A DNA stretch of 64,000 nt from assembly GCA_041651355.1 (NCBI GenBank), contig JBAZJK010000001.1, positions 753,489 to 817,488 of the forward strand. The letters run 5' to 3'. Both the position numbers and the translations under genes were made by a program. Position 1 is the first letter of the stretch; the number at the start of each line of letters is the position of its first letter. The notes beneath the pieces were generated by a model. The model saw only the letters and a list, made by a program, of their open reading frames with translations. It was not told the DNA's origin and did no database searches. This document shows, piece by piece, positions 8,519-61,461 of this stretch. This DNA is from Patescibacteria group bacterium (GTDB lineage Bacteria > Patescibacteriota > Patescibacteriia > Patescibacteriales > UBA12465).

Positions 8519-8524
8519 CTAAAC

Positions 8525-16994: not shown

Positions 16995-19900
16995 ATGAGC
17001 GGTTTCTCCTCGATTGAAAACTTGCTAGATCCGGCCGATGAAGCCCAAGACGAAGAAAGCGTCGGCGCCCAACTCAGCCGCAAACAACAAGAAATAAAAA
17101 ACAAAGAAATAGAAAGGCAAACTGAGGCCAAAGCGAAAAGCGCTGGCCTTAATTATGTTAATCTTAACGGTTTCCCCATCAGTCCAGAAGCGCTATCGAT
17201 GGTAGACGAAGATGAGGCTAAAGAAATCAAGGGCGCTTGTTTTTTTTATGACGGCCATGCCATCCGCTTGGCGTGTTTAGCTTATACCAAGAAAATCGAG
17301 GATAAAGCCCTGGAACTACAAAACAAATATTTTGCCGAGGTAAAAATATATTTGATTTCACCGGCTAGCTTCGCTCGCTTATTGGATTTCTATCACGCCC
17401 TGCCCAAAACAAAAAAAATAATCGGTGGAGTGGAAATCAAAGAGGAAGATTTGGAAAAATTTAAACAGGAAATTAGTAGCTATAAAAGCTTGAACGCCAA
17501 AATAAACGAAGTGAATATCTCTGATGTCGTAACCCTGCTTTTAGCTTCAGCTATGAAAACCGGGGCGAGCGACATTCATGTTGAAGCTGAAGAAAGCCGC
17601 GTTGTCATCCGTCTGCGTATCGATGGCGTTCTGCAAGAGGCGGCCACGATTGAAAAGTCACAATGGCAAAAAATTATCAGCCGTCTTAAGATAATCTCAA
17701 AAGTTAAGATTAACATCGATGATAAGCCGCAAGATGGCCGTTTTTCCATATATTCTCAAGCGAAAAAAATTGAAGTCCGATCTTCTTTCCTGCCCACCGC
17801 TTACGGCGAAAGCGTCGTCATGAGGCTGTTAGACTCCCAAGCCGTACCTCTAAACCTTAAAGGCTTAGGCATCCGCCCTAATATAATCGAAATCTTGGAA
17901 AAAGAAATCTCTAAACCGAATGGCTTAGTTTTGACTACCGGACCGACTGGCTCAGGCAAAACCACTACCTTATACGCAATCATCAACCAGCTCAATCGGG
18001 CCGGCACTAAAATAATTACCCTGGAAGACCCAGTCGAATACCAACTAGAGGGTATCAATCAGAGCCAAGTCGATGCCGCTCATGGCTATTCTTTCTCTGA
18101 TGGTTTACGTTCAATCTTACGTCAAGATCCGAATATCGTCATGGTTGGAGAGGTGCGCGACCTAGAAACCGCCGAAATAGCTGTCCAGGCAGCTCTGACT
18201 GGCCATTTAGTCTTATCAACTCTACACACCAATGACGCCGCCGGAGTCATCCCGCGCCTTTTAGATATTGGGGTCAAACCATATTTCTTGATTCCCGCGA
18301 TTAACGCCGTTATCGGCCAGCGCTTAGTCAGAAAGCTTTGCCCCCATTGCCGCCTTGAACACGCGCTAAGCGCCGAAGAAGATGAACAGATAAAAAGAAT
18401 CTTGGCGGTAATATCCCCTAAAGCCGGAGTTGAGGTTCCACCCACATTGCCGACGATCTACAAGGCAAATCCAAGCGGTTGCGCGGAATGTAATTTCATC
18501 GGATATAAGGGGCAATTAGGTATCTTTGAAATTTTTACCATGGCCGATAACCTTAAGCAATTAACAGCGGATAATGCTCCTTCTTTTCAAATATTGAGAC
18601 AGGCGATTGAAAATGGCATGCTCACCATGCTCCAAGATGGCATATTAAAGACCTTAGATGGTGAAACTAGTCTCGAAGAAATTTACCGTGTCGTTGGTGA
18701 TTTTGATTATGTGAACGAACTTTATGACTTAATTATTTCCCAAACCATCGGCCGGGGATTAGTTGTAAGCCAGGAAATCAAACAAACAGCCGAAACTCTT
18801 AGCCAGAACCTTGGTGGACTGAAAGATAAGCTCCAAAACCTTTCCTCTCAAGAACTCTTGAATTTGACAATGGCGGTCGCGGCCGCTTCTGAAGCCGGCG
18901 ATATACACATCGAGCCAGAAGAAGCTAGCGTTAAAATCCGCTTCCGAATCGATGGCGTCTTGCATGATATCGCTGATATCCCTAAAACCCAATACCTGCC
19001 CCTGATTGCTGAGATAAAGACCTTAGCTGGCTTTGCCACCAATGTCAGACGGGCAACCCTAGATGGCCGGTTTTCCTTAATCTTCCCAGAGAAAAAAATA
19101 GATTGCCGCCTATCAATCATCATCGGCGGACGAGGAGAAACGATCGTTATCCGCCTGCTAAACAATTCAGCGGCAACTTTAAAAATGGAAAAATTGGGCA
19201 TTACCGCCAGTACTAAAGAAACCTTGGAAAAAGCCATCAAGAAAACCCGAGGTATTATCCTAACTACCGGTCCGACCGGTTCCGGTAAGACCACCACTCT
19301 CTACTCCCTACTGAACGAACTCAATCATCCGGATGTAAAAATCATTACAGTCGAAGATCCAATCGAATATGAGTTAGCCGGAATAATGCAAACCCAAATT
19401 GATCCAGAAAGAGGCTACACTTTTGCGGCGGCCATCCGCTCCCTCCTACGTCAAAATCCCAACATCATGATGATTGGAGAAATTAGAGATGAAGAAACAG
19501 CTAAGATCGCCCTAGAAGCCGCCTTAACCGGACACTTGGTGCTTTCCACTATCCACGCCAACAGCGCCGCTGGAGCTATCTCCCGTTTTGCTGGCCTAGG
19601 TATCGACCGCAAAATCTTAGCTAATGCCATAGAGTTTGCTATCAGCCAAAGACTTGTCAGACGCTTATGTCCACATTGCAAAAAGAGCTATGAAATAGAT
19701 GCCGCTACTGAAGAAAAAATCAGGAATATCTTTAAAGACCTAAAAAACCCGGCTATTAAAATACCTAGTGGCCGGACATATTATCAGGCGGTTGGTTGCG
19801 ACAAATGCGGTAATATCGGTTACAAGGGACGGATTGGCCTGTATGAAGCCATGGAGAATAACCCTGAATTGCAAAAAACTATCAGCGCCGAAACTAGTAC

Positions 19901-20018
19901 GGATCATGAGATTGAGCTAGATGCCGTCAACCAAGGGATGGTCACTATAGCTCAGGATGGTATTATCAAAGCCTCGCAAGGTGACACTAGCTTAGATGAA
20001 GTATTCCGAGTTATTTAA
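16995..20018 (+). CDS. Tandem-fused double PilB/GspE-type secretion ATPase
   Basis: 1007 aa. An N-terminal T2SSE_N-like domain is followed by two complete ATPase cores. Each core has Walker A GPTGSGKTTT (nt ~17940 and ~19267), an Asp box (LEDPVEY / VEDPIEY), Walker B (IVMVGEVRD / IMMIGEIRD), a His box (TGHLVLST) and a CPHC...CxxC tetracysteine. Confidence 0.9.
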   Translation: MSGFSSIENLLDPADEAQDEESVGAQLSRKQQEIKNKEIERQTEAKAKSAGLNYVNLNGFPISPEALSMVDEDEAKEIKGACFFYDGHAIRLACLAYTKKIEDKALELQNKYFAEVKIYLISPASFARLLDFYHALPKTKKIIGGVEIKEEDLEKFKQEISSYKSLNAKINEVNISDVVTLLLASAMKTGASDIHVEAEESRVVIRLRIDGVLQEAATIEKSQWQKIISRLKIISKVKINIDDKPQDGRFSIYSQAKKIEVRSSFLPTAYGESVVMRLLDSQAVPLNLKGLGIRPNIIEILEKEISKPNGLVLTTGPTGSGKTTTLYAIINQLNRAGTKIITLEDPVEYQLEGINQSQVDAAHGYSFSDGLRSILRQDPNIVMVGEVRDLETAEIAVQAALTGHLVLSTLHTNDAAGVIPRLLDIGVKPYFLIPAINAVIGQRLVRKLCPHCRLEHALSAEEDEQIKRILAVISPKAGVEVPPTLPTIYKANPSGCAECNFIGYKGQLGIFEIFTMADNLKQLTADNAPSFQILRQAIENGMLTMLQDGILKTLDGETSLEEIYRVVGDFDYVNELYDLIISQTIGRGLVVSQEIKQTAETLSQNLGGLKDKLQNLSSQELLNLTMAVAAASEAGDIHIEPEEASVKIRFRIDGVLHDIADIPKTQYLPLIAEIKTLAGFATNVRRATLDGRFSLIFPEKKIDCRLSIIIGGRGETIVIRLLNNSAATLKMEKLGITASTKETLEKAIKKTRGIILTTGPTGSGKTTTLYSLLNELNHPDVKIITVEDPIEYELAGIMQTQIDPERGYTFAAAIRSLLRQNPNIMMIGEIRDEETAKIALEAALTGHLVLSTIHANSAAGAISRFAGLGIDRKILANAIEFAISQRLVRRLCPHCKKSYEIDAATEEKIRNIFKDLKNPAIKIPSGRTYYQAVGCDKCGNIGYKGRIGLYEAMENNPELQKTISAETSTDHEIELDAVNQGMVTIAQDGIIKASQGDTSLDEVFRVI

Positions 20019-34354: not shown

Positions 34355-35785
34355 ATGACTCTATTAATAATTATCTTCGCCTGTCTTTTTTGTCTTCTTT
34401 GCCTGAAAAAGCTCAACTGGGCTCTTTTCTTTATGATAGCTACCCTGCCTAGCTACCTCATTCGCTTCAAAATTGGACCTATCCCCAGCACCTTACTAGA
34501 GGTAATGATCCTGATCTGTTTTGCGGTCTGGTTCTTTAAAGACAAACCATATAAACAATGGAGAAATAGAAATAACGACAAGCAGCAAAAAATTAATTAT
34601 CCTTTCCGCTGGGAAATCATATTAATATTAATCATTTCTTTCCTAGCTCTTATCCCCGCCTCTTTCTCTAGTGATGCCTTAGGAATAAGCAAGGCCTATT
34701 TTTTGGAAGCCATCTTAGTCTTTATTCTCATTATTAATGTATTTAAGGACGAAAGGAATTATCGCTCAATATTCTGGGCCCTCAGCCTATCAGCTTTCAG
34801 TGTTTCCCTTTGGGCGATTATCCAAAAAATAAGCGGACAATTCATCGCTAATCCCTTTTGGGCTAATCCACAAAATTTCCGAGCCGTTTCTTTTTATGGC
34901 TATCCTAACGCCATCGGCCTTTATTTGGGCCCGGTCATCATCATGCTTGCAGCCTTCCTAATTTCTTTGATAAAAGATGTTGATTTCAAAAAATCAAAAT
35001 TCCCTGAAATCAAGATATTTTTTTTAGGGCTCACCATTATAACATCCATAACGTCTATTATTTTGGCTCGTTCCGAAGGAGCTCTAGCAGCAGTATCAAT
35101 ATCAACTTTTGTCCTATTTATAATTTATGGCCGCCGAAGTCGCTATCTAGCCATCTCCCTGGCCCTCATATCGATAATATTGGTATCCTTTTTACCAAAT
35201 ACTAAAAACTACATTTTAGAAAAAGCTACACTAGAAAATCTTTCCGGCCGAATCAGGCAATTACAGTGGCAGGAAACCTATAACATGCTAAATGACGGCC
35301 ACTTCATATTAGGGGCTGGACTTAATCAATATCCGATAGCTATCAAGCCTTATCACCAAGAAGGTCTTTTCTTCAACCGCGATCATTTAGATAATTTCGA
35401 TCAAAGGCTCAGGGTCAGCGCCGAACTAAGGAATAAATACTGGCAGCCGGTCGAAATATATCAATATCCCCACAATATCTTTTTGAACTTTTGGAGCGAA
35501 ACTGGACTTCTTGGTGCCATATTGTTCTCATGGTTCATTATTAAATTCTTGATAACAAGCATCATCCAGGCAAAAAAATGGGGTCAAGCTAGCCAGAAAC
35601 CTGAAAAATTGATTGCACTCGGACTCTTTGGCGCGATGACAGTAATCACCCTTCATGGTCTCGTCGATGTACCTTATTTCAAAAATGATCTCGCCGTCCT
35701 ATTCTGGCTATTACCAGCGCTTTTAGGGATATTAATAATAAAAAATAATGAAAATAATCTTGCAAAAACTAATCGCCCAAACTAA
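34355..35785 (+). CDS. O-antigen ligase/polymerase (Wzy_C)-like polytopic membrane protein
   Basis: 476 aa with at least 10 TM helices and a central loop bearing a RSEGALAA-type motif, as in the O-antigen ligase family. This is a call by resemblance only. Confidence 0.5.
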   Translation: MTLLIIIFACLFCLLCLKKLNWALFFMIATLPSYLIRFKIGPIPSTLLEVMILICFAVWFFKDKPYKQWRNRNNDKQQKINYPFRWEIILILIISFLALIPASFSSDALGISKAYFLEAILVFILIINVFKDERNYRSIFWALSLSAFSVSLWAIIQKISGQFIANPFWANPQNFRAVSFYGYPNAIGLYLGPVIIMLAAFLISLIKDVDFKKSKFPEIKIFFLGLTIITSITSIILARSEGALAAVSISTFVLFIIYGRRSRYLAISLALISIILVSFLPNTKNYILEKATLENLSGRIRQLQWQETYNMLNDGHFILGAGLNQYPIAIKPYHQEGLFFNRDHLDNFDQRLRVSAELRNKYWQPVEIYQYPHNIFLNFWSETGLLGAILFSWFIIKFLITSIIQAKKWGQASQKPEKLIALGLFGAMTVITLHGLVDVPYFKNDLAVLFWLLPALLGILIIKNNENNLAKTNRPN

Positions 35786-49714: not shown

Positions 49715-49793
49715 ATTGTGGGCTAAACCTGAAAAACAAAATTTACTTTTTTACCTTAAATTTGATATAATATAAATGATTATCTTAAAATAT

Positions 49794-51173
49794 ATGACCA
49801 AAAAAATTTTTGCCCTTTTTCTTCTTGGAACCTTCATCATCACCTCTGGCTTCGGCTGTAAGACGACTGACTCTAAAACTAAAAAGGCCATGGAGCCAAT
49901 TACGATCAACTACTGGCGAGTATTCGATGGTCCTGATGATTTCCAAGATATTATAAAAGAATACCAAAAATTACATCCATTCGTAACTATCAACTACCGC
50001 AAGCTGCGCTACGCTGAATATGAAAATGAACTGATAAATGCTTTGGCTGAAGACCGTGGCCCGGATATTTTTTCTATTCACAACACCTGGATTAAAAAAT
50101 ATCAAAACAAGATTGCTCCTCTCCCCGCTGAAATAACGATGGCTTATCCAGTAGTTACAGGCTCAATCAAAAAAGAGGTTATCAACCAACTCCAAACCAA
50201 TAAAAGCCTGACAGCTAAGGATGTCCGGGACAGATTCGTCGACGTAGTTGGCAATGATGTGATTTTAGAAAACAACCAAATCTACGGCCTACCTCTATCA
50301 GTCGACACCTTAGCCATGTATTACAACCGGGACTTATTCAACGGCGCCGGCATTATCGAAGCGCCCAAGTATTGGAATAAGACTTTCCAGCAAAATGTCA
50401 AAAGCCTCAGCAAACAAGATCCTAAAAAAGAGATCATCCAATCAGGCGTAGCGCTAGGCGGTTCCACTAACATCAACCGGGCTAGTGATATCCTCTCGGT
50501 CTTGATGATGCAGAATGGTGCCGTGATGCTCGATAACAACACCGTCCAATTTAACCTGATTCCTAACAAGCCGGGATTTAAAGAAAACAACTTCAATCCA
50601 GGAGGGGACGCTCTAAAATTCTATACCGACTTCGCTAACCCAGGCAAAGAGGTATATTCTTGGAACGAAAAACTGCCCAATTCTCTAGAGATGTTCACTA
50701 GCGGCAATTTAGCTATATATTTCGGTTATTCCTACGATCTGCCAACGATTAAGGCTGACGCGCCAAAACTTAATTTCTCGGTCTCCAAGCTGCCCCAGAT
50801 AGAAGGCAATCCGGATGTAAATTTTGCTAATTACTGGGTAGAAACCGTATCGAAAAAGAGTAAATACATCAACGAAGCTTGGGATTTTATCCAATTTATG
50901 ACCCAAGAAAAACAGGTAAAGTCATATCTGGATAAAACTAAAAGGCCAACCGCCATCAGAGCCTTGGTCCCAGAGCAAAGAGAAAACCCCGAACTGGGCG
51001 TATTTGCCGACCAAGTCTTAACAGCTAAAAGCTGGTATCGCGGCTTAAATCCGAATATAGCAGAGAATGCTATCCTAGAGATGATTGACGCGGCTGTTAG
51101 AGATAAGGACAGCGGCCGCCTAATGGAAGCCCTAAATGATGGCGCCGCCAAAGTCCAACAATCTATTAATTAG
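49794..51173 (+). CDS. Extracellular solute-binding lipoprotein (ABC sugar-type substrate-binding protein), with no adjacent permease or ATPase
   Basis: The ATG at 49794 gives MTKKIFALFLLGTFIITSGFGC (lipobox). SBP family-1-like motifs (INYWRVFDG.., GLPLSVDTLAMYYNRDLF) are present. Confidence 0.72.
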   Translation: MTKKIFALFLLGTFIITSGFGCKTTDSKTKKAMEPITINYWRVFDGPDDFQDIIKEYQKLHPFVTINYRKLRYAEYENELINALAEDRGPDIFSIHNTWIKKYQNKIAPLPAEITMAYPVVTGSIKKEVINQLQTNKSLTAKDVRDRFVDVVGNDVILENNQIYGLPLSVDTLAMYYNRDLFNGAGIIEAPKYWNKTFQQNVKSLSKQDPKKEIIQSGVALGGSTNINRASDILSVLMMQNGAVMLDNNTVQFNLIPNKPGFKENNFNPGGDALKFYTDFANPGKEVYSWNEKLPNSLEMFTSGNLAIYFGYSYDLPTIKADAPKLNFSVSKLPQIEGNPDVNFANYWVETVSKKSKYINEAWDFIQFMTQEKQVKSYLDKTKRPTAIRALVPEQRENPELGVFADQVLTAKSWYRGLNPNIAENAILEMIDAAVRDKDSGRLMEALNDGAAKVQQSIN

Positions 51174-51176
51174 AAT

Positions 51177-51566
51177 ATGAAAAACAAAAAAATAATCGGA
51201 TTCATCATCGTTGCCTGTTTCTTCCTGGGTGGTATTAGTCGGACAGGTTCCGCCGCTCCACTAATCCCAACAAATGAAAGTGGCAACTACACTCTTAATG
51301 ATTTTGTCATCCTAGGCGTCAATATCTCTAACCTCATCTTAGGATTAGTCGGCTCCCTGTCTTTACTGATGTTCATCTACGGTGGTATCACCTTTCTAAT
51401 TTCTGCTGGCAATGCGGAGCAGGTGTCTAAAGCGCAAAAAATTATAATTGCGGCCGTAGTCGGGCTTATTATCGTATTCACCAGCTACCTGATCATCCAA
51501 TTCATTATGACTAACCTAGGATATAAATTTAATGGAGGCGTCTGGAATGCTGTTTCAAATAAATGA
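51177..51566 (+). CDS. VirB2/TrbC-like two-helix pilin-family protein (paralog 0)
   Basis: 129 aa: signal peptide, helix 1, loop YGGITFLISAGNAEQVSKAQ, helix 2 (VVGLIIVFTSYLII). It belongs to the same family as the 57128-59756 array. Confidence 0.7.
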   Translation: MKNKKIIGFIIVACFFLGGISRTGSAAPLIPTNESGNYTLNDFVILGVNISNLILGLVGSLSLLMFIYGGITFLISAGNAEQVSKAQKIIIAAVVGLIIVFTSYLIIQFIMTNLGYKFNGGVWNAVSNK

Positions 51567-52228
51567 CCCCAACATTTACCCCCAAAAAAATAATCAACGA
51601 GGAAAATATCGGAAATAAGCTGCAACAAGCTAGAGCTTTTAAAGGCTTGAGCTTATCCCAAGTCAGCGAAGCGATAAAAATTAAAACCTCATACATCGAG
51701 GCCTTAGAGGAAAACAATTATCAAACGCTTCCCTCCGGCTTATACCGATCAAGTTATTTAAAGAAATATGCTAAATTCCTAGGATTAGATGAGAAATACT
51801 TATTCGCACAACAAGGCCCGCAATTTTTAGAAATAAACAAACAAGACAACCCCTTTTCCAGGCCAATTATCCAAAAAAGAAAATTACTAGTTTTTCCTAA
51901 AATAATTCGCAATCTCCTAATCACCATAGTCATCCTAATCTGTCTTTTCTACCTGGGCCTTTATATTAAAAAGATCTTCTTCGCTCCCTATCTCATAATA
52001 TCCCAACCGAACAAGAATCTAGTCCAGGATTCCAACCGATTAGAGGTAATCGGCCAGACGGAGGTAGAAGCCGAGGTCAGAATCAATAATGAATTAGTCT
52101 TAAACAATAAAAATGGACAATTCTCTCAAACGCTCATCCTTAAGAAAGGCTTGAACAATATCGTTATCGAAGCCAAAAAAAAATATAGCCGCACCCAAGT
52201 CGTCACTAGACAAATTTTAATCCCTTAA
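51563..52228 (+). CDS. RodZ-like helix-turn-helix membrane protein
   Basis: An N-terminal XRE-type HTH (IGNKLQQARAFKGLSLSQVSEAIKIKTSYIEALEENNY), one TM helix and a C-terminal beta-rich domain. An ATGA overlap links it to the upstream pilin gene. Confidence 0.55.
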   Translation: MTPTFTPKKIINEENIGNKLQQARAFKGLSLSQVSEAIKIKTSYIEALEENNYQTLPSGLYRSSYLKKYAKFLGLDEKYLFAQQGPQFLEINKQDNPFSRPIIQKRKLLVFPKIIRNLLITIVILICLFYLGLYIKKIFFAPYLIISQPNKNLVQDSNRLEVIGQTEVEAEVRINNELVLNNKNGQFSQTLILKKGLNNIVIEAKKKYSRTQVVTRQILIP

Positions 52229-52232
52229 AAAT

Positions 52233-52787
52233 ATGCTTCAACTAAGCAAAACAAATCCTTTGATAGACATCCGTTACATTATCGACCGCATCGGTTTTGA
52301 AGAAAACGACAAGGTGGCCGAGCTTGGCTGCGGCAGTTTTGGTTATTTCGTTTATCCTATCGCCCGCCTAGTTGGTAAAAATGGCCGGGTATATGCCGTC
52401 GATATCCTAAAAACCGCCCTAGAAGAAATCAAGAGAAAAGCCATCCAGGAAAACCTTAGACAAATAGAGACTATCTGGAGCAATCTAGAAATCTTCAAGG
52501 CTACTAAAATTCCCAGCAACTCACTGGATGTGGTTTTATTGATAAACGTGTTGAGTCAATCCGATAAGAAAGCGGAGATTATCAGGGAGGGCACGAGGCT
52601 CTTGAAAAGAAACGGGAAATTAGTTATTATCGAATGGAAAAGCGGTGGCACGTCTTTCGGGCCTATCCTGGAAAAGAGGCTAAAGATAGATTCTATGAAA
52701 AATGCAGCCGGACAGTTAGGCTTAAATCTAGATAAAGAATTCACCGCCGGGCCGCACCACTACGGCTTAATACTTAAAAAAATATGA
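52233..52787 (+). CDS. Class I SAM-dependent methyltransferase
   Basis: 184 aa with motif I (VAELGCGSFGY) and post-I/II motifs. Confidence 0.7.
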   Translation: MLQLSKTNPLIDIRYIIDRIGFEENDKVAELGCGSFGYFVYPIARLVGKNGRVYAVDILKTALEEIKRKAIQENLRQIETIWSNLEIFKATKIPSNSLDVVLLINVLSQSDKKAEIIREGTRLLKRNGKLVIIEWKSGGTSFGPILEKRLKIDSMKNAAGQLGLNLDKEFTAGPHHYGLILKKI

Positions 52788-53167
52788 AAAACCTTCTAAG
52801 CTTCAATTACTGGTTCAATCTAAGACCGGAGGCACTTAACCCTATGGCTAATAAGGCCTTCATCGCCCTTATCTTGTTACTAGTGATTGGCGGCGGCATC
52901 TTCCTATGGCTTAAGAACAGAAAAGGCTTTTATCGCTTCCTGTTCAAAAAACTATACAATTTCAGCATCAGCAATGCGATTATCGGTTTATTATTTCTAT
53001 TTTTTAACTACGAAAACGCTATCTTTTTCTCGGCCCGCTTCTGGCTCCTAGCCTGGTTGATCATGATGATAATCTGGCTGATATTCATTGCTAAAGAACT
53101 AAGAAAGATACCTCTTCAGAAGCGCCAAGCCCAAGAAAATAAAGACTATAAAAAATATATTCCCTAA
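52784..53167 (+). CDS. Hypothetical membrane protein (3 TM helices)
   Basis: 127 aa. It overlaps the methyltransferase stop by 4 nt. Confidence 0.45.
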   Translation: MKNLLSFNYWFNLRPEALNPMANKAFIALILLLVIGGGIFLWLKNRKGFYRFLFKKLYNFSISNAIIGLLFLFFNYENAIFFSARFWLLAWLIMMIIWLIFIAKELRKIPLQKRQAQENKDYKKYIP

Positions 53168-53215: not shown

Positions 53216-53965
53216 CTAACTTTTGAGACCGCTTGACGCTTTTAACAAGCGTTTTTTTAATTTTAATAAATTGGTCAGAAACTTGAAACTATCACGAAAA
53301 AATTTAACCTTACTGGGACGAGCTTGGTATCTTTCTTCCCGCCAATCAACCGGGATCTCTTGCAGGCGCCAACCCTGTCTAGCAGAAAAAACTAAGAGCT
53401 CGGTATCAAAAAACCAATGATCATCTAAAATCTCTTGAGCGACTGACCTAAAAACCTCATTTTTAAAAGCCTTGAAGCCGCACTGGGAATCAGAAAAACG
53501 GTGGCCCAGGAGGAGACGAGATAAAGCGTTGAAAATATAGGAACTCAAGGTCCGGTACCAAGAGCGATCAGTCTTTGACCCGGATAACAAGCGAGAAGCA
53601 AAGACTAAATCGGCTTCATTGCTTAATATCGGTTGTAAAAGAGCGGGCAGAGCTTTAAGATCAACCGCCAAATCAATATCCATATAAACCAAGACTTCGG
53701 CCTGGCTCAGCAAGAAATAATGTTTCAAGGACCGCCCCTTGCCGCCTAGTTTAAACTCTAGGGATTGAATTTTTTCCGGGAATCTCAAACATAAATCGCG
53801 GGTTATCTGAGCCGATTGATCGTTAGAGCCGTTAACTATGACCAAAAGGCGCCAATCTTTGTCTTGAAAAAATATTTCCCGCCCAAGATAATCAAGCACC
53901 TTTAAAATATTACTTTCCAAAATTTTTTCTTCATTGTAGACAGGGAGGCAGATCTCTATTTTCAT
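53216..53965 (-). CDS. Family 2 glycosyltransferase (polyprenol-phosphate sugar synthase-like)
   Basis: 249 aa with N-terminal CLPVYNEE, a DxD motif (YMDIDLAV) and a Dpm1/GtrB-like layout. Confidence 0.78.
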   Translation of the reverse strand: MKIEICLPVYNEEKILESNILKVLDYLGREIFFQDKDWRLLVIVNGSNDQSAQITRDLCLRFPEKIQSLEFKLGGKGRSLKHYFLLSQAEVLVYMDIDLAVDLKALPALLQPILSNEADLVFASRLLSGSKTDRSWYRTLSSYIFNALSRLLLGHRFSDSQCGFKAFKNEVFRSVAQEILDDHWFFDTELLVFSARQGWRLQEIPVDWREERYQARPSKVKFFRDSFKFLTNLLKLKKRLLKASSGLKS

Positions 53966-53966
53966 A

Positions 53967-55367
53967 TTACTTCACTTTATAAAAATATAACTTATCCTCG
54001 ACGTCAAAGACTAGATCATATTCACGCCTGATATATGATTCTACCACATTATCACGCTTATGTCGGAAACGCTGCAAAGGATCAGCATAAGCTAAAATGG
54101 CACAATCTGGCCTATTTTCAGCCAGGTCGCCAAGAGCTGAGGCGAACTGTTCTTCAGTCTGATGCCCGCTAATTAAGATATCAAAACTAGTAGCATTAAC
54201 CTTGCCGGATTCAAAATATAGATTAGGGAAAAATGGACCGACAAAAAGATAGGGCGAATGACAATTCTCTTGTATATAGGCAATAAATTTCTGGCTGCGG
54301 AAAGAAAATGGCCCCCACCACTTATCCTTAAGGTAAATAATCGAGGGAACAAGTAGCTGTAAAATAAAGATTAGAGCTACTACAGCCAGAACTATTTTCT
54401 CTATAATTCCCGACCTTACGGTTCTTAGATAGATAAAAGAAGCCAGACTAAATAAAGGGAAAAGCGATAAAAATAGATGATACTTATCGGGCAGGGGCCA
54501 ACAAGCGACTAATAAAAATGCTTGCAAATAAAGCAATAAGCGTAAATCTTGACGTTTTTCTCGGCGTAAAAACAGCACAACTAGCAGCCAAATAACGGAA
54601 AAAAGTCCTAATCTGGCGTAAGAAATACGATTAGCTTCAATGTAGTGCAATAGAGGGAAATCTATTAAATTGGAATACAACACCTTTAGAGGCCATAACA
54701 ACAGGATAAGCAAAGGAGCGATAGTGCTGATTGTATAATAAAATAATACCTTGGCTTGCGCGACGAACTCTTTTCTGAATAATAAGCTGAAAAAAATAAA
54801 AGAGGCCGCGGCCCCAAAAAATGCCAAACCCTTTTGTTGTAAGAACAATATTCCCAGGCCGCTCATTAGTCCCGCCCAACAGACTGATATAATCTTGTTA
54901 TCTTTTAAATAAGACAGCAAAAAATAGGTAGCCCAAATCAAGCAAACAGTATTAAAAACATTATGGTTAATCAGCCAAAACCAAGCAGAGACAAAAACCA
55001 AAAAAATAGGGATTATATAATTAATCCAGGATCGACAAACTTTTTGGCTAATAGAAAAAATACCGACTATCCCGACAAACCAAATCAAATCGGCCAAAAT
55101 TTGAGCCGGCCAGAAGCCCACCCCAAATATCTTCCAACAAAAGTAGACTAAATAGAAGCCAGCCGGAGGAATAAAGGCAAAAAAATCAAGATAAAGCTGC
55201 CGGTGATTAAACAGGTTCCAGGCGCCACCCAGTAAAACGCCCTCATCACTGTTTAAATAATGGGTTGAATGCAGGAAAAAAATGCCAAAAAATATCGTTA
55301 ACCAATAAATTAGTCGTAACAATTTTGATGGCTTTAAAATTTTATTCCTTATTGCTATTTTTTTCAT
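53967..55367 (-). CDS. Polytopic GT-C-type glycosyltransferase (ArnT/PMT-like), putative
   Basis: 466 aa with about 11 TM helices and an acidic motif in the first external loop (NSDEG). It starts 1 nt from the GT2 gene. Confidence 0.5.
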   Translation of the reverse strand: MKKIAIRNKILKPSKLLRLIYWLTIFFGIFFLHSTHYLNSDEGVLLGGAWNLFNHRQLYLDFFAFIPPAGFYLVYFCWKIFGVGFWPAQILADLIWFVGIVGIFSISQKVCRSWINYIIPIFLVFVSAWFWLINHNVFNTVCLIWATYFLLSYLKDNKIISVCWAGLMSGLGILFLQQKGLAFFGAAASFIFFSLLFRKEFVAQAKVLFYYTISTIAPLLILLLWPLKVLYSNLIDFPLLHYIEANRISYARLGLFSVIWLLVVLFLRREKRQDLRLLLYLQAFLLVACWPLPDKYHLFLSLFPLFSLASFIYLRTVRSGIIEKIVLAVVALIFILQLLVPSIIYLKDKWWGPFSFRSQKFIAYIQENCHSPYLFVGPFFPNLYFESGKVNATSFDILISGHQTEEQFASALGDLAENRPDCAILAYADPLQRFRHKRDNVVESYIRREYDLVFDVEDKLYFYKVK

Positions 55368-57012
55368 TTCGATGATAAAGGAGGCTAACAGAATCAGAGT
55401 ATACCAGAGTCCAATCAGACGAAGAGGCTAAAAAATCCAATAATTCATTATCTTTATTGATTTCATCTTCGTTAATCATCATGAAGCTCTTTTCAAAAGC
55501 ATTCAAATGTAGCCGTCCTACCGGATTCCTAGATAAAACCAAATCTATATTATATTCCTCAAGCTTATCAACCAGCTTATCCTGATCAAAAAAATCAAAA
55601 TATTCTTCTAAGATAGAACGTCCTTTAAAATCAGCCTGGGGCATGCGTCCATCTATAAATAATTGCTTTTCTGGATATCGCCACAGCAAATAACCGCCCC
55701 AGCCAAAATCGTTAAACAAACGCTGGTTCTTAAAAAGAGGTTCGGATTTTATAAAAGCTAGAGCCTGACAAGGATAGAGGAATTGTCGGCGGCCGGGCCG
55801 ATATTTATCCTCGCAAAAATTTTGGAAGGGATCCTGAGTGAACTTTATTCCTAAAGCCAAATTAGCAGTTACCACCAAGAAAGTCGAAATAATAAAAAAC
55901 TTGATAAAGATATCTAGGCCCCTATTCTTAAGAGTTAGTCTCTCTTCTTTTGTTTTCCAAACCGGCAAAATATCACTAATAAATAATTTAAACAGGAGAG
56001 GAAAGGAAACGATAAAAAACAGAGGAAAGTGACGCCTTGATTTAATGGCTAAAACTAAAAAGAACAAAAACATCAGGCCGGCGAACAAATCCAATTTTAT
56101 CTCTTTCTTTTTAAGAATTTTCCTAGTCCAAAAATAGATAGCCAAGAGGCTAACGGAAATATAGGTGAACTGCCAATATTGGTAAGGGAAGGCCCATTGG
56201 GGCAACCATTCAGATATATGGTTAAAATAGAAAGTGTTACCATAGCTAGAGAGGAAGTCGTAGAGGCTAAGGCCATAAGGACCTAGAAGGGTACTAACCC
56301 AAGCCAACAGCAAAAAGGCGACGAACATTAAAATTTCTAGCCAGGAGAACACCGTCGTGCGATCTAAGAAAGACAAGGCTTTTTGATTAATAACTAAACG
56401 CTCAAAAACCTTAAGCCCGATAAACATAAAAAGGATTCCTAAACCGAGTAAAAAGCCGCCGTGCAGATTCGCCCATAAATAAAAAAGTGGCAGCAGCCAC
56501 CACAAGACCAGCCATTTTCTATATTTACTATAATTTAAGATTATAACCAAAAGAAGGACAAAAAAGAGCCAAGTGATCTCTTGTATTCTGACGCCTAGAT
56601 GGGGTGCAACCGCTACAAGGGACAAGCTTTCAAATAAAATCAAAGGCCATAAATATTTTTTTAAGCTAATATTAAAATAATTATTTAAAAAATTATTTAA
56701 GATAAACAAGACAATCAAGGGTATGAAACAAAAAAATAAATTCAGCGTTAAATAACCAAGATTGTTATAAACATAGTAAATTGTCAAATTAGACAACCAT
56801 TCATGATCCACCCAAGAGAAGCCTTCAAGGGTATAATTAGAGTAATTGATGGTTGGAACCTTGCCAGTACTGGCAATTTCTTGCCCTAAGCGAAGGTGCC
56901 AACCAAAATCAGGGTCGAGATAAGAAAAAGAATGCTGTAATAAAAAAACGAACACCAGAAGGTAAAATAAGACCCAGACTACTTTATAAAAAGGCAAACT
57001 TATTTTGGTCAT
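55342..57012 (-). CDS. Large polytopic membrane protein, putative GT-C-like
   Basis: About 556 aa from the ATG at 57012 (the track uses the TTG at 57021). It has at least 12 TM helices, a first-loop motif YLDPDFGWHL and a soluble C-terminal domain. Confidence 0.4.
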   Translation of the reverse strand: MTKISLPFYKVVWVLFYLLVFVFLLQHSFSYLDPDFGWHLRLGQEIASTGKVPTINYSNYTLEGFSWVDHEWLSNLTIYYVYNNLGYLTLNLFFCFIPLIVLFILNNFLNNYFNISLKKYLWPLILFESLSLVAVAPHLGVRIQEITWLFFVLLLVIILNYSKYRKWLVLWWLLPLFYLWANLHGGFLLGLGILFMFIGLKVFERLVINQKALSFLDRTTVFSWLEILMFVAFLLLAWVSTLLGPYGLSLYDFLSSYGNTFYFNHISEWLPQWAFPYQYWQFTYISVSLLAIYFWTRKILKKKEIKLDLFAGLMFLFFLVLAIKSRRHFPLFFIVSFPLLFKLFISDILPVWKTKEERLTLKNRGLDIFIKFFIISTFLVVTANLALGIKFTQDPFQNFCEDKYRPGRRQFLYPCQALAFIKSEPLFKNQRLFNDFGWGGYLLWRYPEKQLFIDGRMPQADFKGRSILEEYFDFFDQDKLVDKLEEYNIDLVLSRNPVGRLHLNAFEKSFMMINEDEINKDNELLDFLASSSDWTLVYSDSVSLLYHRNEKNSNKE

Positions 57013-57044
57013 AAAAGGCAAATCCTCAATTTGTGGCTAAAATT

Positions 57045-57085
57045 ATGATAACATATTTGTTTTCATTTTTAAAATATGTTATCAT
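57045..57085. promoter_or_regulatory. Candidate operator: perfect 12-bp inverted repeat in a divergent promoter region
   Basis: ATGATAACATAT (57045-57056), 17 nt, ATATGTTATCAT (57074-57085), between the glycosyltransferase operon and the pilin array. Confidence 0.45.
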
Positions 57086-57127
57086 TATTAGTATCAATAA
57101 AAATTACAACTAGAAAGGTGGTGAATT

Positions 57128-57523
57128 ATGAATAAAAAATTATTAGGCAAAAGCCTTTTATCTTTCGCAATAATAATGCTTTTGATTTTACCAGTATTCG
57201 CTTTCGTTAGAACGTCTGCCGCCCAGGGTCTTGATGTTGGTATCAATGAGATCAACAATGAAATCCAATTAGGCACAGACGATCCTAGACTTATCGTCGC
57301 CAGGATCATCAACACTGCGATGTTATTCTTAGGTATTATTGCTGTTGTCATCATCTTAGCAGCTGGTTTCAAATGGATGACTGCTGGCGGCAATGAAGAT
57401 AAGGTGGCTGAATCTAGAAAGTTAATGGGAGCTGGCGTCATCGGTTTAGTTATCATTTTAGCCGCTTGGGGTATCGCCAGATTCGTGTTAGAGAGATTAA
57501 TCAATGCTACTAACAACCAATAA
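57128..57523 (+). CDS. VirB2/TrbC-like two-helix pilin-family protein (paralog 1)
   Basis: 131 aa with AAGGTGGTG Shine-Dalgarno, a signal peptide, the loop AAGFKWMTAGGNEDKVAESRK and helix 2 (VIGLVIILAAWGIARFV). Confidence 0.75.
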   Translation: MNKKLLGKSLLSFAIIMLLILPVFAFVRTSAAQGLDVGINEINNEIQLGTDDPRLIVARIINTAMLFLGIIAVVIILAAGFKWMTAGGNEDKVAESRKLMGAGVIGLVIILAAWGIARFVLERLINATNNQ

Positions 57524-57583
57524 ACCGTAGCATTATTTTCGGAGATCGATTTCGGAAAAAGTGGTCCTCATTAATAAATGGGG

Positions 57584-57624
57584 ATCACCGCCCTAAATAT
57601 AAAAATTGTATTTAGGGCGGTGAT
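57584..57624 (+). promoter_or_regulatory. Perfect 16-bp stem-loop between pilin genes 1 and 2 (no U-tract)
   Basis: ATCACCGCCCTAAATA (57584-57599), loop TAAAAATTG, TATTTAGGGCGGTGAT (57609-57624). Confidence 0.5.
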
Positions 57625-57633
57625 AACAATACT

Positions 57634-58047
57634 ATGAATTTATCTCTTATAAAAAAGACAGTTTTATTTATGGGGCTGTTTTTTTGTTTTATTTCTTCAT
57701 TCCAAGCTCTACCAGCCCTAGCGCAAACGCAAGTTGATAAAAGCTATGGTCTAGACGAGACCATGGGAGCGGACAATAGTAAATTAAGACAAGCTCTTTC
57801 AGACACCGACCCCAGGGAAAGAGTAGGTCAGATTATCGGCATCATCCTATCCTTCATCGGAGTTGTTTTCTTGGTCTTAATGATCTACGCCGGTATCCTT
57901 TGGATGACGGCGGCTGGCAATGACCAACAGGTTAACAAGGCAAAAAATTTATTGATAAACGCCATTATTGGTCTAATAATCGTCTTCGCTGCTTATGCGA
58001 TCACTGCTTACGTCGGAGACCTACTAACCAACACTAGCGGGACATAA
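57634..58047 (+). CDS. VirB2/TrbC-like two-helix pilin-family protein (paralog 2)
   Basis: 137 aa with a signal peptide, loop YAGILWMTAAGNDQQVNKAK and helix 2 (IIGLIIVFAAYAITAYV). Confidence 0.75.
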   Translation: MNLSLIKKTVLFMGLFFCFISSFQALPALAQTQVDKSYGLDETMGADNSKLRQALSDTDPRERVGQIIGIILSFIGVVFLVLMIYAGILWMTAAGNDQQVNKAKNLLINAIIGLIIVFAAYAITAYVGDLLTNTSGT

Positions 58048-58048
58048 A

Positions 58049-58444
58049 ATGAAAAAGTTAGCCAAAAATCTGATCGCCCTATGTTTGTCTGTTTTGATGC
58101 TTCTGCCGGTCCTAAGTCAGGCAGAAACTTTTAATTTTGCCACTGATACTGGCCTAGCTTCCACCAGCGACAAAGCTGGCTTCAGCCAAGAAAAGAAAAG
58201 TCCGGAAAATATAGTCCAGCCAATCATAACCGCTGTTTTATCTTTGATCGGTGTCCTATTCTTAGGTTTAGCAATTTTTGGCGGTATAAAATGGATGACG
58301 GCCAAGGGTAACGAAAAACAAGTGAATGAGGCGCAAATGATTATCACTAATGCCATAATTGGCTTAGTAGTAGTAGCGGCTGCTTATGCGATTACCTACT
58401 TTGTCCTTAAAAGCATCGCCAGCCAAACATTCAAGGGAGTATGA
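58049..58444 (+). CDS. VirB2/TrbC-like two-helix pilin-family protein (paralog 3)
   Basis: 131 aa with loop FGGIKWMTAKGNEKQVNEAQ and helix 2 (IIGLVVVAAAYAITYFV). Confidence 0.75.
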   Translation: MKKLAKNLIALCLSVLMLLPVLSQAETFNFATDTGLASTSDKAGFSQEKKSPENIVQPIITAVLSLIGVLFLGLAIFGGIKWMTAKGNEKQVNEAQMIITNAIIGLVVVAAAYAITYFVLKSIASQTFKGV

Positions 58445-58917
58445 AAAAGCTATATCAATCAATAATTATAATCCTAATCTTGACGCTGGCTATATCTTTT
58501 GGATCTTCAGCTCTTCTAGCGGCCAGTTCTACGCCCCCGGTCAACCCTAAAGAATTAAATCTCCAAGATGCCTTTAAAACTCGGGACGGTAACGTCTGCC
58601 AAGGCGGCGACACTTTAGACTGCGTGGCTGATAAAGCTGGATTTGATACCGGTAAGATAGCCCAAAATGGCAGCAACGACACCATCGAGCCGATGATCCG
58701 GACGATTATAAATATAGTCCTATCATTATTGGGGATTATATTCATCGCTTTTATCATCTATGGCGGCTGGGATTGGTTTTCAGCGCGCGGAAATGAACAA
58801 AAACTAGACCGAGCTAAAGACACTCTAACCCAAGCCATCATCGGACTGCTGATCGTCTTAGGTGCTTACGCTATCAGTTATTTTGTTCTCAACATCTTTA
58901 TCCCTTACCTAAAGTAA
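58441..58917 (+). CDS. VirB2/TrbC-like two-helix pilin-family protein (paralog 4, longest variable region, two Cys)
   Basis: 158 aa with an ATGA overlap to paralog 3, loop YGGWDWFSARGNEQKLDRAK and helix 2 (IIGLLIVLGAYAISYFV). Confidence 0.75.
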   Translation: MKKLYQSIIIILILTLAISFGSSALLAASSTPPVNPKELNLQDAFKTRDGNVCQGGDTLDCVADKAGFDTGKIAQNGSNDTIEPMIRTIINIVLSLLGIIFIAFIIYGGWDWFSARGNEQKLDRAKDTLTQAIIGLLIVLGAYAISYFVLNIFIPYLK

Positions 58918-58921
58918 AATT

Positions 58922-59329
58922 ATGAAAAAAAAATTAAAAGCCTTGCTAGTCTTGTTATTTTTAACCGCCATCTTGGTTTTGCCTTATTTCGTCTTTGCCC
59001 AAACGCCCACCAGCAGCCCCAGCAATAACCCCGTGGACAAGCTAAAGGTTGTAACTAGCGGCTCATACCAAGAAGCAGATGAATATACTTTAGCAGAGAT
59101 ACTAGGTCGAATCGCTAATGCCTTTCTTAGCCTCTTGGCGATCATTTTCATAATCCTTATCATCTTGGCTGGATACAACTGGCTTACAGCTAGCGGTAAT
59201 GAGCAAAAAGTAGAAAAAGCGAAAGACACCATGACGCGCTCGATCATCGGCCTTCTAATTATATTGGGAGCCTGGGCAATTTGGATATTCATATTAAATA
59301 GCGGCCTTATCGGGGCGACCTTAAGCTAA
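58922..59329 (+). CDS. VirB2/TrbC-like two-helix pilin-family protein (paralog 5)
   Basis: 135 aa with loop LAGYNWLTASGNEQKVEKAK and helix 2 (IIGLLIILGAWAIWIFI). Confidence 0.75.
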   Translation: MKKKLKALLVLLFLTAILVLPYFVFAQTPTSSPSNNPVDKLKVVTSGSYQEADEYTLAEILGRIANAFLSLLAIIFIILIILAGYNWLTASGNEQKVEKAKDTMTRSIIGLLIILGAWAIWIFILNSGLIGATLS

Positions 59330-59333
59330 AATT

Positions 59334-59756
59334 ATGAAAAAAATTAAACTCTTGACTTTAACATTAATGGGTTTGGTGATAATGAATCTTGGAGTCCAGC
59401 CTCTTTTAGCGGCTACGAGCTCACCAGCTATTAATATCCAAGAGCAAAGCAATAGATTTAACCAGCAGGCAGGCTTCATGTCCAGCGACCTTGGCACTAT
59501 CATCTCTTTAATCATTAAAGTGTTGTTAGGCTTCTTGGCCCTTATATTCCTAGTATTAATAATTATCGCCGGTTTCCAATGGATGACAGCGGCCGGTAAT
59601 GAACAACAGATAGAAAAATCCCAAGCGACGATTAAGGCGGCGGCTATCGGGCTGGTTATCGTTCTCTCAGCCTACGCCATTACTTATTTTGTCTTCAATA
59701 AACTGCCATTCAACATGGCCGGACCAAGCGGTCCGGTTTCTAGCGGTCCATATTAA
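59334..59756 (+). CDS. VirB2/TrbC-like two-helix pilin-family protein (paralog 6)
   Basis: 140 aa with loop IAGFQWMTAAGNEQQIEKSQ and helix 2 (AIGLVIVLSAYAITYFV). Confidence 0.75.
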   Translation: MKKIKLLTLTLMGLVIMNLGVQPLLAATSSPAINIQEQSNRFNQQAGFMSSDLGTIISLIIKVLLGFLALIFLVLIIIAGFQWMTAAGNEQQIEKSQATIKAAAIGLVIVLSAYAITYFVFNKLPFNMAGPSGPVSSGPY

Positions 59757-59827: not shown

Positions 59828-60658
59828 TTAGTAAGGGGGGTAGAAGACATATCCATGACAGGCTATACCTGCATAATTCTGGACGACTCTTCCAACCGTG
59901 AGATTAATGGCACGTAAAGTGCTACGATATTCAGTAACTACCAGGTAGTTACCGGGGACCAATGTTATCTCCATTCTCGTTTTCGCTGGTACAGCGATTG
60001 ATTGCGACAAACCGCCATTTAATGGTTTAAACTGGAATGAAACCATCCCTATAGCCTGGTTATCAATGACCACCTTCAACATTATTGTTGAATCAACCAT
60101 GGTGCCATAAATAGGCAAATGTTCCAGTACATTAATTGAGGATTCCTCACGTCTTATGACGTTAGCTTGAAGCCTGCGCTTCATGGTATTCTGAGTCATC
60201 TCTCGGGGTATCCCGGTGGTGTTAGTATAACGATCAAAGATCGCTTTCCTGTTCTGCTCTAATTGAGCAATGCGGGAGTATAACCCGGTTAATTGAGAGG
60301 CGACAGCCCTGTTGTTTCTAACCTGTTCGGCCTTGCTTTTCCTTGTTTCATTCAGGAGGCTACTGAGTTTTTTAAGCTCCCTGATGCTTTTCAACTGGGA
60401 AGTAACATCTTTTGGATTAGCCGTATCGGCTTGAAGCTTGGCAATCAGAGCCATGAGTTTGGATTCCACCATAATCGTGGAGCTGGTGTCCTCCATGCTG
60501 TTTTCCAAGCGATTTGCCTGGTTCTGTAGACGAGTAATCTCGCCTTCAATGTGGGCAATTTGCCTGTTTTCCTGCCTAGTTTGGCCGGAAGCGACGGGAG
60601 CGGTGAACATAAGCCAAAAAATGGCTAAAATTACGGATAAAAAAGTGGTTGTCTTCAT
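59828..60658 (-). CDS. Secreted coiled-coil protein with a C-terminal beta-rich domain (hypothetical)
   Basis: 276 aa with a signal peptide (MKTTTFLSVILAIFWLMFTAPVASG), about 120 aa of heptad-like sequence, then a beta-rich C-terminus. Confidence 0.5.
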   Translation of the reverse strand: MKTTTFLSVILAIFWLMFTAPVASGQTRQENRQIAHIEGEITRLQNQANRLENSMEDTSSTIMVESKLMALIAKLQADTANPKDVTSQLKSIRELKKLSSLLNETRKSKAEQVRNNRAVASQLTGLYSRIAQLEQNRKAIFDRYTNTTGIPREMTQNTMKRRLQANVIRREESSINVLEHLPIYGTMVDSTIMLKVVIDNQAIGMVSFQFKPLNGGLSQSIAVPAKTRMEITLVPGNYLVVTEYRSTLRAINLTVGRVVQNYAGIACHGYVFYPPY

Positions 60659-60782
60659 GATTGATATGTTTTTTTTGTTTAATATTCGTTGTTTTAATGT
60701 TCGAGTAAATCCTTTTTAATTTACTTAGGGTAAGTATATCACACTTTATTAATATTGTCAATATTTATCCCCAGGCCTAATC

Positions 60783-60811
60783 TTGACTTTAAAAGGCGGC
60801 TGTGATATAAA
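60783..60811 (+). promoter_or_regulatory. Sigma70-type promoter with extended -10
   Basis: TTGACT (60783-60788), 17-nt spacer, TGaTATAAA (-10 at 60806-60811). Confidence 0.5.
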
Positions 60812-60870
60812 GATAAGTTCAAAAATTCCCCTTTAATAGGGGTTTTTGATTTCCCAAATTAAACAATTAT

Positions 60871-61461
60871 ATGAAAATATTAAAGAAATTAGGTGACGAC
60901 TTAGTGCCTCTCAGTAGACGACAACATTCCTTGTTGTTCCTAATTGTCGCTTTGGTTTTCCAATTCATCTTTTTTGCTTTACCCAGCCTAGCTGATGAAA
61001 TAAATACTAAAACCGCCAGGGCTGAAGGCGACTTAACTATAAAAGGCGATTCTTTAACTAAAAGTGACCAGCTAGACATGGTTATCGAGCAAGCCATCCA
61101 AAAAAGCCTGGATAGCCAAAAAGAATACGATACTGAAGTAAAAGAAGAAATAAAAGTTATAAGCTCCAGCGTGCGCCGATTAAGCGCTTATAACTCTGAA
61201 GCTGGGCAAACCGACAACTCTCCTTGTATAACCGCTAACGGCTTTAACGTTTGCGAACATGGCCAAGAAGATACTATTGCGGCGAACTTCTTAAGCTTTG
61301 GAACAAAAGTTAGAATCCCAGAATTATTCGGTGACAGAATATTTGTGGTCCGAGACCGCATGCACAGCAAAAACGGGCAAAAGGTTGATATCTGGATGAA
61401 GAACCGCTCTGACGCCCTTAAATTCGGGGTGAAGGTGGCTAAAATAGAAGTTTTAGAATAA
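60871..61461 (+). CDS. 3D-domain (MltA/RlpA-like double-psi barrel) cell-wall protein
   Basis: 196 aa with an N-terminal anchor helix and a C-terminal SAYNSEAGQTDNSPCITANG....IAANFLSFGTKVRIPELFGDRIFVVRDRM....VDIWM, as in 3D domains. Confidence 0.62.
   Translation: MKILKKLGDDLVPLSRRQHSLLFLIVALVFQFIFFALPSLADEINTKTARAEGDLTIKGDSLTKSDQLDMVIEQAIQKSLDSQKEYDTEVKEEIKVISSSVRRLSAYNSEAGQTDNSPCITANGFNVCEHGQEDTIAANFLSFGTKVRIPELFGDRIFVVRDRMHSKNGQKVDIWMKNRSDALKFGVKVAKIEVLE

Follow-up and report, generated by a model that had tools for sequence, protein, structure and literature searches.

What the products of three minus-strand genes, P3, PMT2 and GT2, act upon is the question raised by a locus in a 64,000-nt stretch of a Patescibacteria genome (the window, with a chromosome-type context of aminoacyl-tRNA synthetases, SMC, UvrA and phosphoenolpyruvate (PEP) synthase), where these genes are transcribed divergently from an array of six pilin genes (table 1). 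The original prediction, made from the same DNA, was that they form a glycosylation module for the pilins. In the analysis presented here, P3 is the conserved partner of the pilins and its linkage to them is independent of gene architecture. The module very probably glycosylates something outside the membrane by means of a lipid-linked sugar, and the pilins are the acceptor of this P3-centred module with a probability of about 0.5. Gene context thus suggests, but does not prove, that the pilins are glycosylated; an O-linkage would be likewise hypothetical.

The three open reading frames (ORFs) were recovered exactly where the original prediction had placed them, together with the two motifs it had quoted, that is, NSDEG in PMT2 and DPDFGWHL in P3. 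PMT2 and GT2 are separated by 1 nt and P3 overlaps PMT2 by 26 nt; therefore, it is reasonable to regard P3-PMT2-GT2 as a single operon. The start codon of P3 is an ATG, as in the database copy of the protein (P0001), while an alternative TTG at 57021 would give a product of 559 aa. The spacer between P3 and the start of pilin 1 at position 57128 is 115 bp with the ATG and 106 bp with the TTG, so that the shared control region of 106 bp described earlier holds for the TTG start and not for the start found in the database copy.

As a single sequence, P3 has no match in Pfam, NCBIfam or the PDB sequences (phmmer). Similarly, a profile of 50 members found no match among the PDB sequences, and Pfam at E<=10 returned no family, STT3 included, for any of the 50 members. 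The AlphaFold2 (AF2) model of P3 (predicted local distance difference test, pLDDT, 89.5; predicted TM score, pTM, 0.89) matched STT3, DPY19, AftA, PglB, AglB and ArnT in Foldseek with a probability of 1.00, all of them being glycosyltransferases of the C type (GT-C). The top match was STT3 (7oci_F, E=2e-5, TM 0.57), and the matches to STT3, PglB, AglB and DPY19 ranged from E=2e-5 to 1e-3 with TM values of 0.45-0.57. The C-terminal domain of 169 aa, located outside, separately matches the globular domain of AglB (3vu0). P3 is therefore predicted by its model to have the GT-C fold. The same applies to the model of PMT2, and the expectation that both large membrane proteins would prove to be GT-C enzymes is borne out at this level.

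On the basis of the model, P3 appears to be the founding member of a large GT-C family without annotation, which corresponds to no described family. This family comprises 25,875 representatives at E<=1e-3 and 3,478 at E<=1e-30. Wherever a listed homologue bears a source name, it is annotated as hypothetical, and no Pfam domain is recorded for any of those listed.

The first-loop motif of P3 is YLDPDFGWHL at residues 31-40, that is, D33-P-D35 followed by H39. The invariant residues of the protein are D33, D35, H39, E71, W72, R142, Q144, H184, E268, W269 and R327 (n=50 sequences for D33 and D35). According to the distribution of K and R (positive-inside rule), the N-terminus is inside and loop 30-71 is outside, and the invariant residues fall within outward loops or at the outer ends of transmembrane (TM) helices. 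The acidic pair D33-x-D35 is accordingly placed in the first outward loop, in agreement with the first-loop position originally given for the motif. By analogy, this outward set of invariant polar residues resembles the arrangement of catalytic GT-Cs.

An oligosaccharyltransferase (OST) of the STT3/PglB/AglB type (GT66) was considered as the identity of P3 and rejected. The OST motif WWDYG is not found in P3, in which residues 433-444 read FNDFGWGGYLLW with GWGGY in its place, and there is no STT3 match at the sequence level. The high rank of STT3 was also dropped as a clue to the acceptor of P3, because the ArnT-like PMT2 ranks STT3 nearly as well. An N-linkage of OST type is without support, N-x-S/T sequons not being consistently present in the pilins.

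GT2 matches Pfam PF00535 (E=2e-19) and carries its DxD motif as D96-I-D98. Its best PDB sequence matches are the DPMS of Pyrococcus (5mlz), ArnC and GtrB, while in NCBIfam AglJ, dolichyl-phosphate hexose transferase, ArnC and PgfS come first, all far under their cut-offs (e.g., 54 vs 325 bits). The resemblance to polyprenol-phosphate sugar synthases which had been noted is seen here too, the best matches being all of that type but below equivalog cut-offs. GT2 can thus be described as a putative polyprenyl-phosphate sugar synthase, the maker of the donor, on a resemblance that is consistent and falls short of family membership. It contains no TM-like segment, and the C-terminal TM helices of the GtrB, ArnC and archaeal DPMS type were not found in it. 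Soluble polyprenyl-phosphate sugar synthases do exist, for instance human DPM1. From the co-operonic position of GT2 we infer that the donor of P3 is a polyprenyl-phosphate-linked sugar.

PMT2 scores 32.2 bits against Pfam PF13231 (PMT_2), the gathering cut-off of which is 26.1. Its first-loop motif is HYLNSDEGVLL (residues 35-46), where D41 and G43 are invariant. The best fold match of its AF2 model (pLDDT 86.5) is ArnT 5f15 (E=6e-7), and Pmt1/Pmt2 (6p25) ranks only 21st with chain B (E=0.03) and 31st with chain A (E=0.2). No MIR domain and no PMT (PF02366) match were found for PMT2 in Pfam. A protein O-mannosyltransferase proper (GT39, Pmt1/2/4) was rejected as its identity, given the absence of MIR and a fold which is nearer to ArnT.

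In order to follow the locus across genomes, 80 loci from different species-level genomes were collected with 10-kb flanks; their P3 proteins are 36-61% identical to the query, and 77 loci have usable upstream sequence. In 64 of these 77 species-level loci, a pilin array stands directly next to P3 and is transcribed divergently from it; the spacer has a median of 126 bp, and arrays of six genes are the commonest. A GT2 gene on the strand of P3, no more than 5 kb away, was seen in 53/61 loci. Four loci (L020, L036, L037 and L048) retain P3, the pilins and GT2 after the loss of the housekeeping block.

The linkage also recurs in divergent lineages, in which five out of ten informative P3 contexts adjoin T4SS_pilin genes in new architectures and with different flanks. 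In L083, the order on one strand is solute-binding protein (SBP), pilin, P3, pilin and pilin; in L089, P3 lies downstream of a pilin; in L090, it is followed by an SBP and four pilins; and in L091, it is upstream of a single pilin. In L092, six pilins are divergent from P3, between NusA and a PBP1 gene. Since the chance rate is about 1.3% per context by a rough estimate, five out of ten are very unlikely to have arisen by chance (binomial P about 9e-8, subject to the roughness of that estimate). The adjacency of a GT-C gene and pilins, on the conservation of which the original prediction had depended, is thus kept both among close relatives and beyond them, its GT-C member being P3.

The seven pilins of the window, that is, the six of the array and a further gene named pil0, all belong to the T4SS_pilin family (PF18895, VirB2/TrbC-like; T4SS, type IV secretion system), with 30.4-42.2 bits vs a cut-off of 26.6. 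Each of them has a hydrophobic N-terminal segment and two TM-like segments. The class-III signal motif (G/FTLIE-type cleavage) was found in none of the seven, and type IV pilins were consequently discarded as the identity of the array. The earlier designation of these genes as pilins therefore stands as far as a pilin family is concerned; however, because they are VirB2-like, the known precedents of type IV pilin glycosylation are analogies only.

The six array positions form order-specific orthologous groups. In 45 arrays from 45 species, 87% of the best matches fall on the diagonal, pilin 1 is a position-specific orthologue in 45/45 six-gene arrays, and positions 3 and 4 are the least stable across loci. 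Each position has its own external motif. The six pilins are, by these comparisons, an ancient, fixed-order set of distinct subunits rather than a variable cassette, and the fixed-order orthology argues against reading the array as a device of antigenic variation.

The composition of the pilins is weak evidence for an acceptor role. In the external segments, Ser and Thr together reach about 19-23% in pilins 2-6 vs a background of 10.8%, and conserved external Ser/Thr columns exist in pilin 2 (T43), pilin 3 (T34/T39), pilin 5 (T56) and pilin 6 (S39). The Ser/Thr/Pro-rich mature N-termini that had been taken as acceptor sequences are real in pilins 4, 5 and 6 (AASSTPP, AQTPTSSPS and AATSSPA) and do not extend to the other four of the seven. 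The weakness lies in the fact that three of the seven pilins fit, that pilin 1 is not enriched, and that the presence of PMT2 does not track the composition: no relation was seen with Ser/Thr/Pro richness (Mann-Whitney p = 0.5-0.7), the N-termini having a richness of 0.220 with PMT2 and 0.215 without it (p=0.73).

These comparisons bear directly on a more specific form of the mechanism first proposed, in which a PMT-like enzyme would O-mannosylate Ser/Thr/Pro-rich pilin N-termini and the three-gene operon would act as the unit. PMT2 is a true PMT_2/ArnT-type GT-C and three pilins do begin with sequences of the expected kind. On the other hand, PMT2 is present in only about 17/80 related loci, being thus missing from about four-fifths of those that keep the pilin array; the N-termini are equally rich with and without it; and the protein lacks MIR and is nearest in fold to ArnT and not to Pmt1/2. 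This mechanism is thus highly improbable. The layout of three genes beside the pilins is real in the window and is not a conserved unit, and the PMT-like protein is not the conserved partner of the pilins.

PMT2 is accessory and varies from strain to strain. What lies between P3 and GT2 differs among loci and includes PMT2, a polytopic protein of 225-465 aa without annotation (10 loci), a methyltransferase (9 loci) and several one-off large membrane proteins, with examples in L005, L008, L012, L018 and L028, the last of which carries a membrane enzyme with a Sulfatase domain of LtaS/EptA type.

Several observations weigh against the pilins as the acceptor. The block from SMC to PEP synthase (PPS) is nearly as conserved as the P3-pilin pair (methyltransferase and RodZ-like block in 44/56 loci, PPS in 34/51), and P3 occurs without a pilin at the locus in 9/77 close loci and without an annotated pilin in five of the ten divergent contexts. 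GT2 is missing from most divergent contexts that hold P3 and pilins, which means that the donor would not always be supplied from within the locus. Pilin 1, the one that shares the promoter region with P3, has an external Ser+Thr content of 10% vs the background of 10.8% and no conserved external Ser/Thr. A flippase gene of the GtrA or SMR (small multidrug resistance) type was not found among the ORFs scanned in the window. Finally, no glycosylated conjugative pilus has been described from bacteria (PMC9905601).

The whole neighbourhood is conserved in the close clade and, therefore, the adjacency there could be inherited gene order. This opens the way to another explanation, that the module glycosylates other envelope targets in the manner of GtrB/GT-C or Ppm1/Pmt systems, the proximity of the pilins being a matter of descent. 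The SBP lipoprotein encoded near the array would be the best candidate target, S-layer or other secreted proteins and a wall or teichoic-acid-like polymer being further candidates. Apart from the block-wide synteny and the pilin-less contexts, this explanation gains from the SBP_bac_1 lipoprotein itself, which has a Ser/Thr-rich linker after its lipobox and recurs beside P3, and from the lack of any relation between PMT2 and pilin composition. Known parallels are Pmt/Ppm1 of Streptomyces, by which the SBP PstS is glycosylated, and the separate CsbB/YfhO system, whose target is lipoteichoic acid.

The pilin-less divergent contexts point in the same direction in one case. In L086 (3660-8002), P3 is flanked by a WxL-like surface protein, a methyltransferase and a LysM/WxLIP protein, a setting which hints that some members of the P3 family may serve other surface proteins. 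In another of these contexts, a GT2-methyltransferase fusion is found near P3, and in a further one two small membrane proteins of no named family and a GT2 lie beside it. Against the explanation by other envelope targets, the linkage of P3 and pilins outlasts rearrangements which removed all other neighbours (L091 and L092, both of which keep pilins without an SBP), and it also outlasts the loss of the housekeeping block in the four loci mentioned above. Glycosylation of targets other than the pilins is rather unlikely as the main function of the module.

GT2 is usually kept in close relatives and rarely in distant ones, and the divergent lineages keep pilins beside P3 where GT2 is not kept. 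This pattern would suit a P3 that does not glycosylate at all and is instead a factor of pilin biogenesis or assembly on a GT-C scaffold, for example through lipid hand-over or as a platform for the VirB2-like polymer. Most solved conjugative pili are stoichiometric complexes of pilin and lipid (PMC9905601), which agrees with such a role. VirB4, VirB6 and VirD4 were not found among the ORFs scanned across the 64-kb window, a result that favours it as well. We know of no GT-C-fold protein with a role in pilin assembly, which counts against it, as do the invariant set of acidic, His and Arg residues at the outer face of P3, similar to that of catalytic GT-Cs, and the donor-synthase-type GT2 that is co-operonic with P3 in most close relatives. 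An assembly factor is, on balance, improbable.

With the pilins as the acceptor, the module could work as follows. On the inner side of the membrane, GT2 would load one sugar onto polyprenyl (undecaprenyl) phosphate, and a flippase would carry the lipid-linked sugar to the outer leaflet. P3, whose predicted catalytic loop with D33-x-D35 and C-terminal domain would both face outside, would then attach the sugar to the pilins while these are still embedded in the membrane and not yet assembled, at their outward N-terminal segments. PMT2 may be a second GT-C, occupying the strain-variable slot between P3 and GT2 and diversifying the modification. The P3 operon and pilin 1 would be transcribed from back-to-back promoters. 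An extension of this scheme, in which the P3 family is dedicated to VirB2-like pilins and the pilus is built from six conserved, non-interchangeable subunits, is put forward as tentative.

The promoters of this scheme are proposed from the spacer between P3 and pilin 1, which contains an 18-nt dyad with arms at 57041-57058 and 57072-57089. The dyad was at first read as an operator, and this reading was replaced after 63 orthologous spacers were compared, as it then appeared as two outward-facing TGnTAnnAT boxes around AAGACAA. This central element occurs in 33/63 spacers vs about 1-2 expected. On the minus strand, a promoter scanner marked 57050-57045 (TATCAT) as a TG-extended -10. Hence, the dyad probably represents two back-to-back extended -10 promoters, one for the P3 operon and one for pilin 1, in a compact bidirectional arrangement. 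Pilin 1 is preceded by the Shine-Dalgarno (SD) sequence AAAGGTGGTGA, the core of which, AGAAAGG, is found in 43/63 spacers vs about 1-2 expected. The conservation of the control region counts as further support for the scheme. The base after TG is often identical in both arms of the dyad.

A structured RNA of two tandem hairpins, B and C, is located between pilin 1 and pilin 2. The spacer of these two genes has a median length of 99 nt vs 3-10 nt at the other junctions, and its median fold z-score is -5.7. Hairpin B is kept in sequence (GUGAUYCUCAU...AUGGGRAUCAC), and hairpin C covaries, with double (compensatory) changes in 11/12 pairs. RNAalifold on the re-anchored alignment gave 20 pairs, 13 of which show compensatory changes; paired cells amounted to 92.7% vs 32-52% when the partners were slid, and the covariation score was 0.556 vs 0.11-0.17. 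In the window, the extended base of hairpin C competes with the 3' arm of hairpin B. The RNA is present in most related loci and matches no Rfam family. It lacks a U-tract and is therefore not a canonical intrinsic terminator. That a hairpin hides the ribosome-binding site of pilin 2 was rejected as a general rule, since in several other loci about 20 nt or more lie between the end of the hairpin and the start codon. This RNA probably keeps pilin 1 at a high level relative to pilins 2-6, and pilin 1 is probably the most highly expressed subunit.

Among the known systems, the nearest precedent for the pairing of P3 with pilins would be, by analogy, TfpW of Pseudomonas aeruginosa group IV strains, a GT-C which arabinosylates the type IV pilin (bioRxiv 10.1101/2020.04.19.049825). 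By its description, TfpW resembles P3 in being a GT-C with 11 TM helices and a cytoplasmic N-terminus, in the large C-terminal domain that it exposes to the periplasm and in having an acidic motif, which is essential. The tfpW gene adjoins that of the pilin which TfpW modifies, and the sugar used is linked to polyprenyl phosphate. However, its acceptor is a type IV pilin, whereas the neighbours of P3 are VirB2-like T4SS pilins. The C-terminal domain of TfpW contains TPR (tetratricopeptide) repeats, whereas in P3 this domain is without a TPR match and is similar to the globular domain of AglB. Finally, the tfpW gene lies downstream of its pilin, unlike the divergent arrangement of P3.

The three-component Gtr, ArnC/ArnT and CsbB/YfhO systems (PMC11127046), which consist of a GtrB-like GT2, a GtrA/SMR-type flippase and a GT-C, share with the module a synthase-like GT2 that is co-operonic with one or more GT-C enzymes having their active sites outside. 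They differ from it in that no flippase gene was found in the window, GT2 is devoid of the C-terminal TM helices of GtrB/ArnC, and their acceptors are glycans or lipid A and not pilins; P3, moreover, falls in no described family. In structure, the P3 model comes nearest to STT3/PglB/AglB (GT66) and the C-mannosyltransferase DPY19 (GT98), which have an acidic motif in the first outward loop too, although P3 has no sequence-level relation to them. Contrary to GT66, the adjacent GT2 suggests a monosaccharide-phosphate donor for P3 and not a pyrophosphate-linked oligosaccharide. In the actinobacterial Ppm1/Pmt pair, a polyprenyl-phosphate sugar synthase and a PMT-type GT-C modify secreted proteins and lipoproteins, including an SBP. 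The difference is that PMT2 is here accessory and ArnT-like, and P3 is unrelated to Pmt in sequence.

Arrays of 2-11 T4SS_pilin/VirB2-like genes, 441 in number, have been reported from Patescibacteria, and one of them is essential in Ca. Southlakia epibionticum (PMC12102498). The array of the window is one of this kind. That study reads the pilin paralogues as variation for host range, while here they form six ancient orthologous groups of fixed order, and virB4 is not beside the array in the window. The study makes no mention of glycosylation or of glycosyltransferases, 'glycosidases' being the only word in it that matches 'glycos'. Three things are new in the locus described here: the GT-C family at its core is without annotation, this family is partnered with VirB2-like pilins, and a recognisable flippase is missing.

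Table 1. Features of the P3-pilin locus, with positions counted along the window.
Feature	Coordinates	Strand	Description
SBP_bac_1 lipoprotein	49776-51173	+	Pfam; lipobox SGFGC
pil0	51177-51566	+	seventh pilin-like gene, PF18895
127-aa 3-TM protein	52784-53167	+	no family match
GT2	53216-53965	-	249 aa, family-2 glycosyltransferase, soluble
PMT2	53967-55367	-	466 aa, ArnT/PMT_2-type GT-C
P3	55342-57012	-	556 aa from ATG; predicted GT-C fold, about 11 TM helices
Divergent control region	57013-57127	.	between P3 and pilin 1
pilin 1	57128-57523	+	131 aa, PF18895 33.7 bits, external DPR motif conserved
Structured RNA	57561-57624	+	pilin 1-pilin 2 spacer, tandem hairpins B and C
pilin 2	57634-58047	+	PF18895
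pilin 3	58049-58444	+	PF18895
pilin 4	58441-58917	+	PF18895
pilin 5	58922-59329	+	PF18895
pilin 6	59334-59756	+	PF18895

On the other side of the glycosyltransferase genes, a conserved plus-strand operon (49776-53167) encodes the SBP lipoprotein, a pilin, a RodZ-like HTH_25 protein, a methyltransferase and the 127-aa protein with three TM segments. The pair of SBP and pil0 is kept in about 45/80 related loci, and the combination of SBP and pilin turns up again beside P3 in the divergent L083, L089 and L090. The SBP lipoprotein and pil0 are possibly associated with the P3/pilin module. After the pilin array, two genes without family assignment (59828-61461) are often found; the product of one, of 276 aa, has an N-terminal hydrophobic segment and weak matches alone, which hint at a coiled coil, and that of the other, of 196 aa, has a hydrophobic segment at its N-terminus.

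About 20 kb from the array, a plus-strand gene (34355-35785) encodes a 476-aa protein of the Wzy_C/O-antigen-ligase family (PF04932, E=6e-16). This family includes the PglL/PilO pilin O-oligosaccharyltransferases and, to our knowledge, the source organism has no lipopolysaccharide (LPS). The protein is, by its family, a candidate for a second protein-glycosylating enzyme. Further away, the 1007-aa product of a plus-strand gene at 16995-20018 is matched twice by T2SSE (PilB-like secretion ATPase) and seems to be an ATPase in tandem or fused form. A tRNA-Ile with the anticodon UAU, which is uncommon in bacteria, is located at 8445-8519 (+).

VirB2-like arrays are widespread in Patescibacteria, and one has been reported as essential for the epibiotic lifestyle (PMC12102498). 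A conserved enzyme partner of such arrays provides a testable handle on them, in the form of D33/D35 of P3, the candidate Ser/Thr acceptor positions and the donor synthase. Through P3, a predicted fold and a likely activity can also be given to a family of about 26,000 cluster representatives, which have no match among the curated families. If the glycosylation of the pilins is true, it would constitute a new class of pilin modification and the first glycosylated T4SS-type pilus in bacteria, and the surface glycan would be adjusted, to the benefit of host recognition or phage evasion, through the variable slot of additional GT-Cs and methyltransferases.

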